Assembly: GCA_965223155.1 (NCBI GenBank)
Contig: CBDCVR010000015.1
Location: 1,152,001-1,216,000, forward strand
Reading direction: 5' to 3'
Length of the DNA: 64,000 nucleotides
Source: Candidatus Multivoradales bacterium
GTDB lineage: Bacteria > Acidobacteriota > Thermoanaerobaculia > Multivoradales > JAHEKO01
Numbering within the stretch: the stretch's first letter is position 1; each line of letters starts with the position of its first letter. The notes under the pieces were generated by a model. That model was not told where the DNA came from, searched no databases, and saw only the letters and a list, made by a program, of their open reading frames with translations. Shown in pieces: positions 1,342-21,490 of the stretch. A program made the translations under genes and the position numbers.

Positions 1342-4300
1342 ATGGAGTGGGTTGGCATGGGACGACAGAAGGCTAGCCCCTCCCGCCGATACCGAAGAAT
1401 CGGGAGCATCTGGGTTGCGGCACTCGCCGTAGCGGCACTGACCACCGCCCAGGAACCCGACCCGGGGCCGGAGGATCCTCCGGTCGGCGCCGACGTCAAT
1501 GATGCCCTTGTCGTCTCGCAGAACCTGCCGGACGCGATGTACTGCGGCGACACCGAGTCGTTCACGATTCGGCTCGAGAACGTCGGTACGGGCGACTGGA
1601 CCGAGGACGGTACGAACGGGCACCGGCTCGGGGTCACGGACAACGACGATCCGTTCCGCTCAAACGGCTCGAAGGTCCGGCTCCCCGCGGGCACGACCAT
1701 CGCTCCGGGACAGCGGCACACGTTCACCGTCGAGTTGACCGCGCCCGAGACCCACGGTGTCGTACGCACGGAGTGGCAGATGGCCGAGCAGGGGGTCGAA
1801 TGGTTCGGTTCGATCGTCTTCAAGGACATCAACGTCGTCTGCGGGGACCATGCGGTCCTCGCCGCCGAGGCGTTCCCGACGGCCATGAACTGCTCTTCGG
1901 AAGACGAAGCCACGGTGACGCTCCAGAACCTGGGCTCGACCGACTGGACCGACGCGGCCGGGTTCTATCTCGCCAACGTGGGCACGAGCGATGCCTTCAA
2001 TCCGTCCGGCGCTCCGGTGCGCTTGCCGAGCAATGTCACGGTCGGTCGCGGCGGAGGTCAGTACCCCTTCAAGGTTCCGCTCCAGGCCCCGAGCGACACG
2101 CACCAGAACGACGTCATGACGCTCTGGCAGATGGAGCACAACGGCGAACCCTTCGGTCCGCTCGTGACTGCCAGGATCGACGTTGATTGCGTCAACGCTG
2201 CGACCCGGGTCTCGGACACCCTGCCGGATTCCATGACCTGCGGCTCGACCCTGGTGCGCGAGGTGACGCTTCGCAACGGCGGCTCGAAACCCTGGACCGC
2301 AGCCGGCGGTCATCAACTGGGGGTTCCCGGGGATACCGATCCCTTCAACCCGAGCGGCGCCCGGGTCCACCTGCCGGCGAGCCTCGCGATCGAAGAGAAC
2401 GACTCCCACACCTTCGACGTCTCGCTGGTAGCGCCCGAGACGGCAACGACTCTGACCACCGAGTGGCAGATGGTCGAGAACGGGCAGTGGTTCGGCGAGA
2501 AGGTCTCAAAGACCATCACCGTGGTCTGTCAAGACGCTGCCCAGGCTATTGGTCACAACTTGCCGTCGCAGATGGCCTGTGGCGAAGTGGGGACCTATGC
2601 CGTAACGATGAAGAACACGGGCGACACGGTCTGGACACGGGCGGACGGCTACAAACTGGGCCCGACGGGAGGAAGCGACCCGTTCCGGGCCGATGCGACC
2701 CGGGTTCAGCTGCCCACGAGCGCCTCGATTGCCCCGCAATCCCAGCATTCGTTCTCGGTCGCCTTGACCGCGCCGTCGCAGCCCGGAAGCTATGTGACGG
2801 AATGGCAGATGGTCAACGAGGGCGTCGGCTGGTTCGGCGTCGTCGTCTCTCATCCCATCGAGGTGACCTGCCAGACGGGGGCCAACGACGCCGACATCGT
2901 CTCCGCCAACGTTCCGTCTCCGATGGCACTCGGCTCGACCCATACGATCTCAGTAAGTGTTGCCAACAACGGCACCTCGACTTGGCAGGCCGGCACCCAT
3001 CGGCTGGCCGTCGACGCCGACCTCGACTTCTTCCCGGCGAGCGTGGAGCTGCCGGCAGGTGCACAGATCGACGAATCTGGTTCGCACTCGTTCGTCTTCG
3101 AGGTCACGATCCCGACGACGGCAACGCTAGGCAACCAAGTCATCCAGTGGCAGATGGAGACGGTGAGCGGAGACGCGTTCGGCGAGACCGAGAGCACTGT
3201 GGTCAAGGTCGTCGATCCGTCCACTGCCCTGCCGATGGTTGACTCCGAGCTCATCGTCGTGCCCCTGGGAGCGGTGACGCGCGCCAGTCTCACGGGATCG
3301 GGCCTCTCGGGCGCCGAGGTCTCCTTTGCCCGGCCGGCGACCGGCGATCCGGCGAGCACTCCCCTCGCCAGCGCCGTGACTTCGTCCGGCCAGCAGCTGG
3401 CCTTCGACGTCGATACTCGAGGGGCGACCGAGACCGGCTTTCATGTCCTGACGATCGAGACCGCCGGTGGCGTTGAGTCGGCACTCGTCCGCGTCCTTGC
3501 TCCCGGACCGGTGGTGGACACCTACACACCGAGCGAGGTCGCCCGAGGTGAGACCTACGTGCTTCACATCGTTGGTGCGAATCTAGGTGGCGGCTCGATT
3601 TCCACTTCCAGCTCTGGCATTCAGCTCCACTCGGTCCACGCCGAAACCAATGGGATATCGGCTGTCCTGTCCGTGGAGGATGACGCGTCGACCGGCGAGC
3701 GCGAACTGTCGGTCATGACGTCGGCCGGCTCCGTCAGCCTTCCGCTCCGCGTGCTTGCATCTTTGTCCGGTGGCTCTCCGGCGACTCGGACCCTCGGAGG
3801 CGCACGCTTCCAGACGCCCGCGACCTACGGGGACTTTACGAATCCCAAATCGACGATTCCGGAAAACGCCTTCTTCGCGGGTTGCTACGACAAGAACTTC
3901 CGCTACAACGTCATCAATCACACTTCGACGCAACTGATTCTCGAAGACCTGCAGACGGCAGCCGCGGTTCTGCCCGGCGATGTGGTCAATCTTGTTCCCG
4001 AGATCGGACGGGTTCTTGACGCGACCGTTCTGCAGACCCATGCTCGGATCGAGGTCGAGGGGGCCGTCGTCGTCTGCGTCTTCTTTGAACCGCTCACCGG
4101 GACCTTCGAGTGGGGCTACAACATCGATCTCTGCATCCGGGCGGAAGCCCGCATCACGATTCCGCTGGTGCGGGGCTACATGTTCACCAAGGAATGGTGT
4201 TTCGGAGTCCAGCGCGAAGAGCCTCCGACCGAAACCGAGCCCACCGGAGACATGGAGTCCTTCTCCGTGCGCCACAGCGATGCCTGTGTCAAGGTCGTCG

Positions 4301-17461: not shown

Positions 17462-17665
17462 ATGGCGGGGGGCGACAAACAGTACGCAGAGCGCTTGGCA
17501 ACGACCCTCGATTTGTTCGTCGCCGGAGAGGAGATCATGCGGCAGAATCTCCGTCGCCGCAATCCAGGAAAGTCTCCCGAAGAGATTCGGGCCCTCCTCG
17601 ACGCCTGGCTTCGACACAGGCCGGGGGCCGAATTCGGTGACTGCGTTGGAGTTCGCCGACTCTAG
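17462..17665 (+). CDS. Small MenA1/Rv0078B-like antitoxin (orphan)
   Basis: 67 aa AERLATTLDLFVAGEEIMRQNLRRRNP..EEIRALLDAWLRHRPGAEFGD resembles, from memory, M. tuberculosis Rv0078B (..LDMYEVGEQMQR..IDAW..RPGAEEGD). Confidence 0.65.
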   Translation: MAGGDKQYAERLATTLDLFVAGEEIMRQNLRRRNPGKSPEEIRALLDAWLRHRPGAEFGDCVGVRRL

Positions 17666-18225
17666 CCGGGGTCCTGCGATTCGGCCTGATTCTCGAACCG
17701 CAGGCTCTCGAGCGCTGCGGCGATGTCTCGATAGACCGCCGCGCAACCCTCGACACCGGCGGCGTAAGGGTCGCGGAACTCGCCCCGGCGAGTCGAAGAC
17801 AGGACTCCGAAGCGAACCGCCTTGGACTTTGCTTCCGGGAATCTCCGGGTCAACTCGGAGAAGAGCCATTCGTCGAAGACCGCCACGGCGTCGGCCCACG
17901 CCACGGCGGAAGCATCGGTCGCGCTCGATCGGTGGCCGTCGAGGTCGAACCCGAGCTTGCGGGCGGCCTTGCGGGCGTGCTCGGGCGTCGAGCGCCCCTC
18001 CTTTTCGAGAAAGCCGGTCGAACGCACCTCGATCTCCGGTCGGTGGGTCCGGATCCAGACCTCGGCAAAGGGGCTCCGGCAGATGTTGCCGTGGCAGACG
18101 AAGAGAACCCGCCGGGCGCCTTCCATTTGGCGCCGAGCGCCCTCCGTGCGCGCCGCGCGCAAGGGCGTGGAGTTGGGCAGAGTCAGCACCGGCCCGAGAA
18201 GGCGTCGTCGGATTCGCTCCCACAT
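17662..18225 (-). CDS. Low-molecular-weight protein-tyrosine phosphatase (Wzb-like)
   Basis: VLFVCHGNICRSPFAE (CxGNxCRS) and DPY motifs. Confidence 0.9.
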   Translation of the reverse strand: MWERIRRRLLGPVLTLPNSTPLRAARTEGARRQMEGARRVLFVCHGNICRSPFAEVWIRTHRPEIEVRSTGFLEKEGRSTPEHARKAARKLGFDLDGHRSSATDASAVAWADAVAVFDEWLFSELTRRFPEAKSKAVRFGVLSSTRRGEFRDPYAAGVEGCAAVYRDIAAALESLRFENQAESQDPG

Positions 18226-18339
18226 GGCCCTAGTATCGCCGCTTTATCCCTGGGGGGCGGTACGGAATAGGTATCCTTCTATGAGTCGGTCGGTTGGCGT
18301 CAAGAGTTTCGTTTCTTCTTTTTGTAGTTTTCCTTAGGT

Positions 18340-18505
18340 TTGGATCGAGGCTTGGGACGAGCTTCTATTCGCACTCTGTAGGGTTCTTCTTTGAACCGGT
18401 GCATGGTGAGTTTTGCGTCCGTTTAGGAATCGATGCTCCCATCTGTCACACGGTGTCGGGGCCACCAAGGATACTTTCGGAGTCATCGAACCTCTCAATC
18501 CGTCC
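18340..18505 (-). ncRNA. Predicted bridge/seek RNA of the IS1111-type element
   Basis: Hand-folded. Basal stem 18342-18349/18494-18501. Target loop closed by 18430-18439/18479-18489 with guides GUAUCCUU and GUGACAGA matching the insertion site. Donor loop closed by 18355-18359/18416-18420. Ends approximate. Confidence 0.8.
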
Positions 18506-18533
18506 TTGCTTGTTGGTCGTCTAGTTATCTCTT

Positions 18534-19547
18534 CTACGCTGCCTTGGGAAAGGCTCGGAAGCTCTCACCTGTCACCCACAGCCTGTGGAGCAACACCGCG
18601 ATCTTCCTAGCTAGCGCGACCACGGCCTTGCCCTTACCCAGCCTCTCGACCAGGCCCTCAGCCCATCTCTTGAGTGACGACTCTTTGCGACAGTTCAACG
18701 CCGCATGAGCTGCCTGCACCAAGAGTCTGCGCATCTCCGAGTCGCCCTCGCGAGTGATCCGGCCCCTGACCTCATGCCCTCCTGAGCTGCGAAGCGACGG
18801 TCTCAAGCCCAGACACGCTCCGACGTCGCGGCTTTTCTCGAACCGATCCGGACGATCCATCCAGCCGACGAACGCAAGGCTCACCAGAGGCCCCACACCA
18901 GGAACCGTCTGCAGCCGACGGACCAGCTCGTTTGATCTCGACTCGGAGATGAGGTCGTCTTCGAGATGGTGGATCCGATCGGTCAGCTCGCCGATTGTCG
19001 TTACCAGAGGTTCGAGCGCTCCCAACAGGCCGGCTTCGACCGACATCGACGCGTACCGAGCCACGAAGCTCTTCGCCGGACATGAGGGCACTCGGTAGCC
19101 CTGTGCCCGCAGCGTTCCGCGTACGGAGTTGATCAGCGAGGTCCTGGTCTTCACCAGACTCGTTCGGACCCGAAGACGCGTCCGAAGCTCTTGGGCCTCA
19201 CCTGTGCGCTGGTAGACTGGTCGAAGCAAACCCAGATCCAACCGGCTCAAACGAGCCAGGATCTCGGCGTCGATTCCGTCCGTCTTCAGGGTCGATTCCG
19301 CGATCAGACGTACCCGGCGTGGATTGACCACCATCACCTCATGGCCGAGCTCAGACAGCAGTCGATAGACCCAGGGTGTGACCGGACCGCTCTCGAGCGT
19401 CACCTGCGAGCGTTCCCGATTGGCGAAGAACCTTCGCAGGCCCGTCTCGGTCGTCGGAACCCGCCGGCGAACCGTCACCTCACCGTCTTCTGATACGCCA
19501 CACACCTCGCTGTACTTCGAGTGAACATCGATGCCAAGATACTCCAT
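18534..19547 (-). CDS. IS110-family DEDD recombinase/transposase
   Basis: YLGIDVH, TLES, KTDGIDAE (RuvC-like DEDD); TVPGVG; GLRPSLRSSGG (catalytic Ser region); VALARK; AAGGAG RBS before ATG 19547. Confidence 0.96.
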   Translation of the reverse strand: MEYLGIDVHSKYSEVCGVSEDGEVTVRRRVPTTETGLRRFFANRERSQVTLESGPVTPWVYRLLSELGHEVMVVNPRRVRLIAESTLKTDGIDAEILARLSRLDLGLLRPVYQRTGEAQELRTRLRVRTSLVKTRTSLINSVRGTLRAQGYRVPSCPAKSFVARYASMSVEAGLLGALEPLVTTIGELTDRIHHLEDDLISESRSNELVRRLQTVPGVGPLVSLAFVGWMDRPDRFEKSRDVGACLGLRPSLRSSGGHEVRGRITREGDSEMRRLLVQAAHAALNCRKESSLKRWAEGLVERLGKGKAVVALARKIAVLLHRLWVTGESFRAFPKAA

Positions 19548-19690
19548 GGTCGGTCTCCTTTCTCGGCTCTGATGCCGATTCTTGGTTATCTCCAACTGGC
19601 ACAGTGTCCCAGCTGGAGACCGACCGACTCATCTCATCTGTCACCGTATTACCACCAACGAACCGCGCTGCCCCGATACACTCCACTCCC

Positions 19691-21490
19691 GTGGAGACCG
19701 TCCGGAATTTCTGCATCATCGCCCACATCGACCACGGCAAGTCGACCCTTGCCGATCGGTTGATCCAGCACTGCGGCGCCGTCGAGGACCGGGAGTTTCG
19801 GGACCAGATTCTGGACTCGATGGACATCGAGCGCGAGCGCGGCATCACCATCAAGTCGAACACGATCTCGCTCGACTACCGCGCCCGGGACGGCCGGGAG
19901 TACCGACTGAATCTGATCGACACTCCCGGCCACGTGGATTTCTCGCACGAGGTGCGGCGCTCGCTCATGTCTTGCGAGGGAGCGCTCTTGGTGGTGGACG
20001 CGGCCCAGGGCGTCGAGGCGCAGACCGTGGCCAATCTCTACTTGGCGCTCGAGTACGACCTCGAGATCGTGCCGGTCGTCAACAAGATCGACCTGCCGTC
20101 GGCCGACGTGGACAGCGCCCTCGAGGAGATCGACTCGGACCTGGGTCTCGATCCGTTCGACGCCGTGCCGTGCTCGGCCAAGACCGGCGCCGGCATCGAC
20201 GAGGTCCTGGAGGCGGTGGTGACGAAGCTGCCTGCGCCGGAGGGCGATCCGGAGGCGCCGCTTCAGGCGCTCATCTTCGACGCCCAGTACGATTCCTACC
20301 GTGGCGTCGTGCTGCTGGTGCGGGTGAAGGCCGGAACCCTCCGGCCGAAGCAGACGATTCGCCTCATGCACACCGCCAAGGACTACGACGTCGAGGAGGT
20401 GGGCCTCCTGAAGCTCAAGAAGGTCAAGACCGGAGGGCTCGAAGCCGGAGAGGTGGGCTACGTCATCGCCGGCATCAAGACGGTCCGGGACATCGAGATC
20501 GGCGACACTTTGACCGATGCCACAAGCTCGGCGTCCGAGCCGCTGCCCGGCTACAAGCCGGCCAAGCCCGTGGTTTTCTCGTCGGTCTATCCGATGTCTA
20601 CCGACGAGTATCAGGATCTTGCCAAGGCGCTCGACAAGCTGGCTTTGAACGACGCCGCTCTGACCTACGAGAAGGACTCGTCGGCGGCGCTCGGCTTCGG
20701 TTTCCGCTGCGGCTTTCTGGGCCTCCTGCATCTGGAAGTGGTCCAGGAGCGGCTGCAACGCGAGTACGATCTGTCGCTGCTTCTGACCGCGCCCTCGGTG
20801 CGCTACCGGATCGAGCTCTCGGACGGTGAGGAGGTGCGGATCGACAATCCGCAGTTCTATCCCGATCCGACGCACATCGAGCAGGCCTACGAGCCGTACA
20901 TCAAGGCTTCGATCCTGATTCCGGAGCGCTACATCGGCACCGTCATGGAGCTTTGCCGCGAGCGCCGGGGCGAGAACACCACCTTCAACTATCTGGCGGT
21001 GGGCCGGGTCGAGCTGACCTCCGAGCTGCCGCTCGCCGAAGTCCTGTTCGACTTCTACGACCGCCTGAAGAGCTCGACCCAGGGCTACGGTTCGTTCGAT
21101 TACGAGATCCTCGACTACCGGCCCACGAGTCTGGTCAAGGTGGACATCCTGGTCAACGACGAACCGGTGGACGCGCTCTCCCAGCTCGTCCACCGGGACA
21201 AGGCCCGGGCGCGCGCTCTCCACTACTGCGAGCGGCTGGCCGACACCATTCCCAAGCAACAGTTCAAGATCAAGGTCCAGGGCGTGATCGGCGGCAAGGT
21301 CATCGCCCGGACCACGATCTCCGCTTTTCGCAAGGACGTCACCGCCAAGTGCTACGGCGGCGACATCACCAGGAAGCGCAAGCTTCTCGAGAAGCAGAAG
21401 GCGGGCAAGAAGAAGATGATGGTCGTGGGCTCGGTCGAGATCCCGCAGAAGGCCTTCGTCGAGGTGCTGAAGAGCGATGCTGGCAGCTGA
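19691..21490 (+). CDS. lepA: Translation elongation factor 4 (LepA)
   Basis: RNFCIIAHIDHGKSTLADRL, ERERGITIK, DTPGHVDF, GFRCGFLGLLH, KCYGGDITRKRKLLEKQK; start reassigned to GTG 19691. Confidence 0.98.
   Translation: METVRNFCIIAHIDHGKSTLADRLIQHCGAVEDREFRDQILDSMDIERERGITIKSNTISLDYRARDGREYRLNLIDTPGHVDFSHEVRRSLMSCEGALLVVDAAQGVEAQTVANLYLALEYDLEIVPVVNKIDLPSADVDSALEEIDSDLGLDPFDAVPCSAKTGAGIDEVLEAVVTKLPAPEGDPEAPLQALIFDAQYDSYRGVVLLVRVKAGTLRPKQTIRLMHTAKDYDVEEVGLLKLKKVKTGGLEAGEVGYVIAGIKTVRDIEIGDTLTDATSSASEPLPGYKPAKPVVFSSVYPMSTDEYQDLAKALDKLALNDAALTYEKDSSAALGFGFRCGFLGLLHLEVVQERLQREYDLSLLLTAPSVRYRIELSDGEEVRIDNPQFYPDPTHIEQAYEPYIKASILIPERYIGTVMELCRERRGENTTFNYLAVGRVELTSELPLAEVLFDFYDRLKSSTQGYGSFDYEILDYRPTSLVKVDILVNDEPVDALSQLVHRDKARARALHYCERLADTIPKQQFKIKVQGVIGGKVIARTTISAFRKDVTAKCYGGDITRKRKLLEKQKAGKKKMMVVGSVEIPQKAFVEVLKSDAGS

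Follow-up and report, generated by a model that had tools for sequence, protein, structure and literature searches.

An IS1111-group insertion sequence of a Multivoradales bacterium with a putative bridge RNA whose guides match its insertion site

Members of the IS110 family of insertion sequences (ISs), including its IS1111 group, were described in 2024 as choosing their insertion sites through an RNA of their own, the bridge RNA or seekRNA. According to excerpts of the account of the IS1111-family seekRNA elements ISEc11, ISPa11, ISKpn4 and ISPst6 (Siddiquee et al. 2024, PMC11187229), transposases of this family are 330-350 aa in length and carry the motif GL-P----S(t)G, and the RNA segment complementary to the top strand of the target precedes the one complementary to the bottom strand. 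The subterminal inverted repeats of the IS1111 group span 7-17 bp, as given in an excerpt of Durrant et al. (2024, PMC11208160). Excerpts on IS621 (PMC11208160; Hiraizumi et al. 2024, PMC11208158) describe an RNA of two loops, each of which reads both strands of its DNA with an overlap on a CT core. The element described here is a clear new example of this mechanism, which is itself already known.

The window, by which is meant the whole 64,000-nt stretch of DNA analysed (Candidatus Multivoradales bacterium, contig CBDCVR010000015.1, positions 1,152,001 to 1,216,000), contains an intact and recently active IS1111-group member of the IS110 family. We consider it very probable that this element picks its insertion site through its own bridge RNA. 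What can be seen at the locus, in its genome and in related elements is the anatomy of the element, its true empty site and core, site-specific insertion in multiple copies, and the covariation of guides with flanks and of paired stem positions. In window coordinates, the element and its boundaries are as follows.

18278..19639, minus strand: insertion sequence (14 full copies at 100% identity and one IS-split copy; boundaries from the comparison of filled and empty sites)
18271..18277, plus strand: left half of the target, GTATC, and the left CT core copy at 18276-18277 (filled/empty pairs)
19638..19645, plus strand: right CT core copy at 19638-19639 and the right target half GTCACC (copy flanks and filled/empty pairs)
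18278..18294, minus strand: right end in transposase orientation, a 14-bp subterminal inverted repeat at 18281-18294 followed by the 3-nt extension AGA at 18280-18278 (inverted-repeat search)
19619..19637, minus strand: left end in transposase orientation, the 5-nt extension ATGAG at 19637-19633 and a 14-bp subterminal inverted repeat at 19632-19619
18534..19547, minus strand: recombinase gene, 337 aa from an ATG with AGGAG 9 nt upstream (Pfam, NCBIfam, and alignment to the IS621 and ISCro4 transposases)
18299..18304, minus strand: conserved CTTGAC just inside the right-end inverted repeat

Counting one CT core, the IS is 1362 bp long. Its subterminal inverted repeats of 14 bp, with terminal extensions of 3 and 5 nt, are those of the IS1111 group, as is the placement of its non-coding DNA, 256 nt of which lie downstream of the gene (18278-18533) as against 90 nt upstream (19548-19637). 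The end layout sTIR-CTCAT-RGA-AG is common to related elements, and CTTGAC or TTGAC precedes the right-end repeat in those inspected. To judge by its sequence, the CTTGAC motif could serve as the -35 box for a promoter that is completed at the circle junction; a promoter and terminator scan of the integrated element returned no sigma-70-like site.

The recombinase possesses both an N-terminal RuvC-like DEDD domain (PF01548, residues 4-147, 87.8 bits against a cut-off of 29, E 8.5e-25) and a C-terminal Transposase_20 domain (PF02371, residues 210-289, 75.5 bits against a cut-off of 21.3, E 4.5e-21), and scores 241 bits (cut-off 140) with the NCBIfam equivalog NF033542, 'IS110 family RNA-guided transposase'. 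These matches bear out the description of an IS1111-type DEDD element in the first-pass annotation, a model's reading of the bare sequence. The same annotation called the 337-aa enzyme compact; the size is ordinary for a family of 330-350 aa (PMC11187229, in excerpt). Candidate catalytic residues are D7, E52, D90, D93 and S255. In the alignment with the IS621 transposase, E52 falls on its Glu and S255 on its Ser, and the motifs GIDV (D7) and KTDGIDA (D90, D93) align with both ISCro4 and IS621; the catalytic roles are those given in an excerpt of PMC11208158, where the chain numbering is offset by 2. The motif GLRPSLRSSG at residue 247, which spans S255, and the length of 337 aa are both those of an IS1111-group transposase.

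In the 4.0-Mb genome the element is found as 14 full copies, 100% identical, together with one copy interrupted by an IS256-type element; a relative that is 81% identical is present twice. Every full copy and the interrupted copy lie at one and the same site, with the junctions ...ATCCT/TCTATG and CATCT/GTCACC, and their flanks define 13 distinct loci; copies at unrelated sites, which the first-pass annotation had named as evidence against its reading, are thus not found among them. The left 7-mer GTATCCT flanks 13 of the 14 full copies (the exception, L012, reads GCATCCT), and GTCACC lies 3′ of all 14 and of the right part of the interrupted copy. For two loci the variant contigs of the assembly provide both a filled and an empty state (C11 vs C14, and C7 vs C14). 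The empty form reads ...GTATC-CT-GTCACC... and the filled form ...GTATC-CT-(TCTATGAG...CTCATCTCAT-CT)-GTCACC..., and because of these pairs the core is a 2-nt CT and the insert 1362 bp, where a 3-nt TCT core had first been proposed. The empty site deduced from that longer core, GTATCCTTCTGTCAC (GTATCCT-TCT-GTCAC), has 0 matches in the 4.0-Mb genome, as against 17 for GTATCCTGTCAC (GTATC-CT-GTCAC(C)), of which 0.23 would be expected on the three large contigs. Insertion at one specific site, with CT repeated at the junctions and no longer target duplication, is that of the IS110 family.

A short palindromic repeat, specific to this bacterial family, contains the 13-nt target motif GTATCCTGTCACC, which serves as a landing pad; on the main contigs, about 40% of its exact occurrences are occupied. 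Guided recognition covers 5+2+5 = 12 bp, so that the earlier estimate of about 15 bp of specificity was too high; a further conserved base, the 13th, is part of the host repeat and is mismatched to the guide. It might be argued that the copies are fossils, spread by the duplication of repeat-rich regions, and that the element is no longer mobile, since several of them fall within a single IS-dense stretch (C13, 297-308 kb), some flanks are part of the same longer repeat, and one copy is broken by the IS256-type insertion. This is very unlikely, however, with the full copies identical and their open reading frames intact where scored, with differing flanks at the 13 loci, with two loci found both filled and empty, and with precise junctions that carry a single CT each. 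Among four contig sets covering 18000-19900, the element is present, its contig depth being 6-9x that of the left flank in two (X2 and X3), and in none of the four was a circle junction or an empty form of the window locus found. Joints seen in contig sets over this interval fall in the adjacent GTPase gene and come from other organisms. Of 8 sequencing runs listed, none is catalogued as RNA.

The element carries, 3′ of its gene and on the transposase strand, the non-coding region in which the putative guide RNA is located. Its features are as follows, all on the minus strand.

18430..18489: target-binding loop, with an outer stem of 18479-18489 and 18430-18439 and an inner hairpin at 18452-18466 (centroid fold)
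18468-18474: 5′ target guide GUAUC-CU (covaries with flanks)
18443-18449: 3′ target guide GUGAC-AG (covaries with flanks)
18440-18442: AUG after the 3′ target guide, which matches the start of the element's left end
18355..18420: donor-binding loop, with an outer stem of GGACG (18416-18420) and CGUCC (18355-18359) (compensatory changes)
18403-18415: 5′ strand of the donor loop, with CUCA at 18407-18410 (register from family-wide pairing)
18371-18402: inner stem-loop of the donor loop, closed by GCAC/GUGC
18360-18370: 3′ strand of the donor loop, with AUAGAAG at 18362-18368

Across the target loop the RNA reads ...UCGAUGACUCC-GAAA-GUAUCCUU-GGUG..CACC-GU-GUGACAGA-UG-GGAGCAUCGA..., and the letters of the target and donor guides that were first picked out by eye are confirmed. 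GUAUCCUU (18467-18474) and GUGACAGA (18442-18449) each match 8/8, as had been claimed; the matches hold for the junctions of the inserted element, and the eighth letter of each is the element's own end base and not a base of the target. In the 5′ target guide this eighth base (U) varies across the family, T and G alternating, and is probably not a guide base. The remaining GUAUC-CU and GUGAC-AG fit both strands of GTATC-CT-GTCAC with an overlap on the core, and the top-strand guide precedes the bottom-strand guide, the order described for IS1111-family seekRNAs (PMC11187229, in excerpt). The match is far beyond chance: when the 256-nt non-coding region was shuffled 200000 times, 3 of the shuffles contained both 7-nt guide cores in this order within 60 nt.

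The structure comprises five helices, including those of the donor loop (helices 3-5), with 95.4% of cells paired and compensatory change in 23 of 28 pairs, in an alignment that was fitted to the model's structure and so favours it. This level of pairing was reached by 0 of 500 shuffles, and slid controls attained at most 44%. The centroid fold of the 138-nt RNA shows both loops; taken by itself, the folding energy does not stand out (z = -1.56 over 270 nt, -1.37 over 138 nt). A scan of 17800-20000 against Rfam at E <= 1 matched no bridge-RNA family, and its sole match, to a snoRNA, was set aside as chance (it lies inside the coding region and scores 14.9 bits against a gathering score of 39).

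The donor loop can be read against the ends of the element itself. An identical copy of AUAGAAG lies at the right-end tip, 72 nt downstream of the RNA, and the 3′ strand of the loop matches the joined ends at 7/7 positions, in agreement with the early proposal that AUAGA is complementary to the circle-junction donor. The 5′ strand matches at just 5/7. This partial match had also been noticed; it is real, but it is no defect of this copy, the mismatch pattern being common to the family, in which 5′-strand pairing is seen at positions +2 to +5 of the left end and at the first base of the core. Among 26 loci, the right-end tip carries the donor 7-mer unchanged in 21 and with a single mismatch in 2 (one of the exact matches, in L033, lacked the repeat context and was dropped), and the 7-mer follows A/G differences in the right end as well as the AA core of L035. 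No handshake match in the 3′ strand of the donor loop was apparent by eye in the few elements compared.

Related elements were collected by a phylum-wide genome search, and the RNA was sought with a covariance model built from 3 sequences, which located it in 26 of 29 related loci. Element ends were placed without use of the target loop, and guides were compared with flanks by a windowed match count with the flanks of other elements as controls; an exact-match search missed cases with one mismatch or a shift of one base. The 5′ guide matched its own flank at 7.35 of 9 positions on average and the flanks of other elements at 4.13 (n=20), and the 3′ guide at 6.82 of 9 and 4.21, respectively (n=17). 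The observed sums were reached by 0 of 20000 permutations, a count for which the related elements are not statistically independent and which was the same without three close relatives. A covariance model from homologs, with guides expected to co-vary with insertion sites, was the check suggested at the outset, and it came out in favor of each element's own flanks. Guides do not fit their flanks in every case: with the 5′ guide 3 elements out of 20, and with the 3′ guide 5 out of 17, agreed with their own flank at fewer than 7/9 positions.

Closely related elements illustrate the same relationship. The 81%-identical relative in the same genome has the guides AAAAGG-GU and GUGCC-AG, and its two copies are flanked by GAAAGG-CT / CT-GGCACC and AAAAGG-GT / CT-GGAACC. 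In a 79%-identical relative from a genome of the same genus, the guide AAGUGG-GU-U equals its own flank at 9/9 positions and GUGCC-AG equals the other flank. An 85%-identical element in an Acidobacteria metagenome-assembled genome (MAG) has one guide-flank mismatch, GUAAC vs GTAGC. The idea that the fourth guide position follows the variable base (T, G or A) of the host repeat was rejected on this element, whose guide has A there; of the 18 repeats listed in its genome, 13 carry G and 5 carry T. Read from their sequences, the different guides that fit different flanks in sister elements represent natural reprogramming. The alternative is that the site is found by protein-DNA contacts or through the inverted repeats, with the 3′ region a mere untranslated tail whose likeness to the target is incidental. 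A target within a conserved host repeat could in principle be read by a protein, but the guides change with the flanks in the 81% and 79% relatives and across the 20 and 17 elements of the permutation test, and the stems around them still pair through compensatory changes. Moreover, published experiments on IS1111-family relatives found their non-coding region to be both essential and programmable (PMC11187229, in excerpt), and recognition by protein alone is accordingly given very little probability.

A bridge RNA read by base pairing, the reading we prefer, also raises a question about the core. The sister lineage, made up of the 81% copies and the 79% copy, has a 5′ target guide written for GT and a 3′ target guide written for the donor's CT. 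In both of its insertions with a GT junction the target-left junction keeps GT and the other carries CT, and an unoccupied look-alike site, AAAAGG-GT-GGAACC, is present in the genome. It is conceivable, if rather doubtful, that this lineage recombines a target core, GT, that differs from its own core, CT. If so, one guide would fit the state after strand exchange, drive the reaction forward, and record the letters of the surviving strand; the unpaired donor-loop positions beside the core, which occur family-wide, may serve the same purpose.

It is extremely improbable that the guide region works as DNA, whether single-stranded or folded into a hairpin within the circle. Sequence comparison alone does not distinguish RNA from DNA pairing, but a G-U wobble is kept in several pairs (among them columns 26/121, with UG:4, and columns 137/224 and 140/221, each with UG:2), and wobble pairs are typical of RNA. 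Solved structures and biochemical work on relatives, in the excerpts cited, show RNA (PMC11208158; PMC11187229). By analogy with such work, the RNA of this element would be made and bound, a circle would form, and strands would be exchanged by the same chemistry. The element would leave as a circle in which its right and left ends are joined around the CT core, and the 3′ non-coding RNA, transcribed along the transposase strand, would fold into two internal loops. In the target loop, GUAUC-CU would pair with one strand of GTATC-CT and GUGAC-AG with the other strand of CT-GTCAC, overlapping on the core. In the donor loop, AUAGAAG would pair with CT-TCTAT (7/7) and CUCA.C with the other end, leaving two positions, beside and in the core, unpaired. 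The AU(G) that follows the 3′ target guide matches the incoming element end and would be placed like the 'handshake' bases of IS621. The DEDD/Ser recombinase would then swap strands at the CT core, and the 1362-bp element would land between GTATC-CT and CT-GTCACC.

One genome with 15 copies, unoccupied sites, two filled/empty pairs, and a sister element with rewritten guides makes a well-documented natural case. The surrounding clade of about two dozen same-phylum relatives, with a common RNA architecture and known ends, is open to comparison and could be a source of new programmable recombinases and of rules for mismatch tolerance near the core.

The best tblastn match to the recombinase in a plasmid collection is 37% identical, and related elements of the same phylum, the close ones set aside, are at most 44% identical. 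As far as excerpts of PMC11187229 describe them, ISEc11, ISPa11, ISKpn4 and ISPst6 resemble the present element in their 330-350-aa DEDD transposase with its GL-P----S(t)G motif, in subterminal inverted repeats with short terminal extensions, in a long non-coding region downstream of the gene, in two short RNA segments that overlap in the target, the top-strand one being 5′, and in insertion at one specific site. Compared by description, they differ in target, which is here a motif of a repeat specific to the bacterial family. ISPpu9 of Pseudomonas putida (PMC12288879, in excerpt) differs in host phylum and in target. IS621, in the excerpts cited, has its RNA upstream of the gene and subterminal repeats of 2-3 bp (PMC11208160), whereas here the RNA lies downstream and the repeats are 14 bp. 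Unlike IS621, the present element has its gene antisense to the CT strand; in its donor loop the 3′ strand (5+2) is the guide that pairs fully and the 5′ strand is the weaker, and the loop shows no handshake match to the target (PMC11208160; PMC11208158). The two are alike in the catalytic Glu and Ser, which align; as whole proteins they match with an E of only about 1e-10. They are also alike, by the same excerpts, in a two-loop RNA, in loops that each read both strands of their DNA with an overlap on the CT core, in two bases after the 3′ target guide that match the donor as handshake bases do, and in the order of left guide then right guide along the CT strand (PMC11208160; PMC11208158).

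The element at window positions 18278-19639 (minus strand) is a real, intact and recently expanded IS1111-type insertion sequence that is guided by a bridge RNA. The first-pass annotation had recognised both the kind of element and its guides, and the letters that it transcribed agree with the sequence. The recombinase gene is bordered by 256 non-coding bases downstream and 90 upstream, and the parts of the element are as follows:

19547 to 18534, minus strand: recombinase open reading frame, 337 aa, with AGGAG 9 nt 5′ of the ATG
18281-18294 and 19619-19632: 14-bp subterminal inverted repeats, found by inverted-repeat search

The 337-aa protein contains both IS110-family transposase domains of Pfam, PF01548 (E 8.5e-25) and PF02371 (E 4.5e-21), and scores 241 bits against the NCBIfam equivalog 'IS110 family RNA-guided transposase' (cut-off 140). 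The ISCro4 and IS621 transposases are its sole solved-structure relatives by sequence (E about 1e-10). Alignment to these two proteins places D7 within GIDV and D90 and D93 within a KTDxxDA motif, while E52 and S255 align to the catalytic Glu and Ser of the IS621 transposase, residues whose roles are described in PMC11208158. In the plasmid collection, the best matches reach 37% identity and carry no more specific label than 'IS110 family transposase'. By analogy with its relatives, the element would be transcribed into an RNA that is bound by the recombinase, and would pass through a circle form by the same strand-exchange chemistry; neither the circle junction nor the empty form of the window locus was seen in the contig sets compared with the locus, and the sequencing runs listed include none recorded as RNA.

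Strain variants seem to be present in the assembly, so that copy counts that include the small contigs count some loci twice. The genome (G000) has 14 full copies, all 100% identical, and main-element copies sit at 13 distinct loci as judged by their flanks. Seven of the 12 small contigs (C1, C2, C5, C7, C8, C9 and C11) are 96-99.9% identical to stretches of the three large ones, and some of them differ from the large contigs in the presence or absence of the element. The genome also contains two copies of an 81%-identical relative, and a 43-bp end fragment. One additional copy of the main element is interrupted, within its transposase gene (equivalent window position about 18670-18680), by another insertion sequence, unrelated and about 1372 bp long, with terminal inverted repeats and 8-9-bp target duplications, which encodes a 435-aa Mutator-family (IS256-type) transposase (PF00872, E 1.8e-65). 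Copies of this IS256-type element, and a stretch rich in insertion sequences and repeat sites, lie at the following positions on contigs of G000:

C7:11411-12782 (2474-3845 of locus L015): IS256-type copy
C13:299686-301056: IS256-type copy
C14:571680-573051: IS256-type copy
C15:374671-376045: IS256-type copy
C11:5664-7038: IS256-type copy
C13, 297-308 kb: stretch rich in insertion sequences and repeat sites

Among the variant contigs, two loci are present both with and without the main element. The empty form of both reads ...GTATC-CT-GTCACC... and the filled form ...GTATC-CT-TCTATGAG...CTCATCTCAT-CT-GTCACC..., and the insert boundary can be shifted over two bases and no more. This makes CT the core, gives an insert length of 1362 bp and assigns the eighth base of both annotated 8-mers to the element's own end. 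A TCT core had been proposed instead, and the empty site obtained by excision at a shared TCT, GTATCCT-TCT-GTCAC, has no match in the 4.0-Mb genome. The sequence GTATCCTGTCAC has 17 matches genome-wide, 16 of them on the three large contigs against 0.23 expected from base composition; on these contigs, 11 filled sites stand beside 16 exact empty sites. The left flank of the full copies is GTATCCT in 13 of 14 and GCATCCT in one, and on the right GTCACC borders all 14 of them as well as the right half of the split copy. Insertion at unrelated sites, which the annotation had named as a finding that would count against its reading, was thus not observed.

The two 8-mers lie, as annotated, at 18467-18474 and 18442-18449 (minus strand) and equal the junction sequences at 8/8 positions. 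The guide match is far beyond chance even with the corrected core, as shuffling the non-coding region 200000 times produced both guide 7-mers, in order and at most 60 nt apart, in 3 cases. Two stem-closed internal loops, the target loop and the donor loop, are present in the centroid fold of minus-strand positions 18355-18492, and the folding energy taken by itself is unremarkable (z = -1.37 for 18355-18492 and -1.56 for 270 nt). A covariance model built from three close sequences, with the structure supplied by the analyst, found a matching RNA at 26 of 29 loci encoding related transposases (most 33-44% identical) among 401 sampled genomes of the phylum; no match came from the three loci that are most distant. 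In the resulting alignment, which was fitted to the model's own structure, 95.4% of cells are paired and 23 of 28 pairs have changed on both sides; none of 500 shuffles did as well, and pairing in slid controls was at most 44%.

Three independent lines of evidence, from the 81% sister element, a 79% relative and the family as a whole, point to the target-loop strands as the probable guides to the insertion site. The related copies are:

G000 C13:297852-299225 (L016): 81% sister element
G000 C15:372319-373687 (L017): 81% sister element
L053 (contig C32 of same-genus genome G401): 79% relative, mixed junction

The sister element keeps the stems and has the guides AAAAGG-GU (main element GUAUC-CU) and GUGCC-AG (main element GUGAC-AG), and its two insertion sites are GAAAGG-CT / CT-GGCACC and AAAAGG-GT / CT-GGAACC. 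In the 79% relative, the guide AAGUGG-GU-U equals one flank at 9/9 positions and GUGCC-AG equals the other. For the family, target-loop strands were compared with their own flanks and with those of other elements, right ends being set from the donor-loop 7-mer and left ends from the inverted repeat, with the target loop unused; three loci had no right end, and another three (two partial alignments and L033, a locus with no credible end) were excluded beforehand. The 5′ strand matched its own flank at a mean of 7.35/9 positions and other flanks at 4.13/9 (at least 7/9 in 17 of 20 own-flank and 4 of 380 other-flank pairs), and the 3′ strand at 6.82/9 and 4.21/9 (12 of 17 and 8 of 272). The observed sums were reached in 0 of 20000 permutations, in a comparison whose nine positions include two from the nearly constant core and whose elements, being related, are not independent; the result stands with L028 (a locus from the unpublished genome G152) left out and with the three close relatives left out.

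At the core, the target guides of the sister lineage read GU (5′) and AG (3′), and the L017 and L053 insertions each have one GT and one CT junction, which suggests that this lineage may naturally use a target core different from its donor core. An unoccupied look-alike site, AAAAGG-GT-GGAACC, lies at minus-strand offset 1146357 of C14. The 43-bp fragment, in the stretch C13:299257-299335, is a solo left end in opposite orientation, 62 bp past the right end of the sister element, flanked by CT-GGAACC and preceded by a site-like AAAAGG-GT-GGTGCC.

The donor-loop sequence AUAGAAG (18362-18368) is the reverse complement of the right-end CT-TCTAT. In 21 of the 26 loci, the rejected L033 among them, the corresponding 7-mer recurs without mismatch at the element's own right-end tip, and in two it does so with a single mismatch; it tracks an A/G difference in the end extension as well as the AA core of locus L035. 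The 5′ donor strand had been annotated as only a partial match; the mismatch is real and is not peculiar to one copy, being family-wide in 19 elements. Match rates there, computed from two registers only, are 0.84-1.00 at left-end positions +2 to +5 and 0.84 at the first core base, falling to 0.26 at the base beside the core and 0.11 at the second core base. This strand also tracks end variants, with CUCA for ATGAG, CCCA for ATGGG and CCUUA for ATAAGG.

The 13-nt landing motif, GTA(T/G/A)CCTGTCACC, is part of a repeat specific to the host bacterial family. It was found in 16 of the 24 other genomes from this family, as many as 70 times in one of them, and in one of 16 genomes from other families of the order; the reversed pattern gave 0 or 1 match per genome. 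Copies often form short arrays or inverted pairs 34-58 bp apart. Single copies in G000 lie between short complementary arms whose letters differ from site to site, and a short tandem duplication often follows the motif (for example, CCGATCTCCCCA CCGATCTCCCC). Examples are:

window 18258-18277 and 19640-19653: landing repeat
G000 C15:702794-702885: landing repeat
G000 C13:301094-301164: landing repeat

A conserved CTTGAC(G/A) (window 18298-18304, minus strand) lies 17-18 nt from the right-end tip, at the same place in related elements. In a circle it would lie opposite a hexamer that extends across the core and the first two left-end bases, and on this sequence pattern the junction could form a putative promoter for the transposase gene. 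In the window stretch 19640-21490, a gene for a translation-factor GTPase with the LepA-like motif IIAHIDHGKST has its likely start about 50 bp downstream of the element. The element is itself downstream of an open reading frame in divergent orientation (17662-18225, minus strand). A long reading frame listed from 19604 starts inside the element, and 19604 is probably not its true start.

The host repeat resembles the repetitive extragenic palindromes reported in PMC12288879 as targets of other IS1111-type elements. For IS621, PMC11208160 and PMC11208158 describe loops that each read both strands and overlap on a CT core, and two 'handshake' bases 3′ of the right target guide that, once the strands have been exchanged, pair with the donor. 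The main element has the same layout when it is read along the CT strand. Of 21 related RNAs whose target loop is complete, 19 have AU after the core of the 3′ target strand, and AT starts every left end determined among related elements; since both are invariant, they are consistent with a handshake and not evidence for one. Where the main element departs from IS621, it does so in the traits that define the IS1111 group, namely an RNA located downstream of the gene, long subterminal repeats and a gene that runs antisense to the CT strand. The first of its two guides is consequently the one complementary to the top strand, as in the IS1111-family seekRNAs described in PMC11187229.
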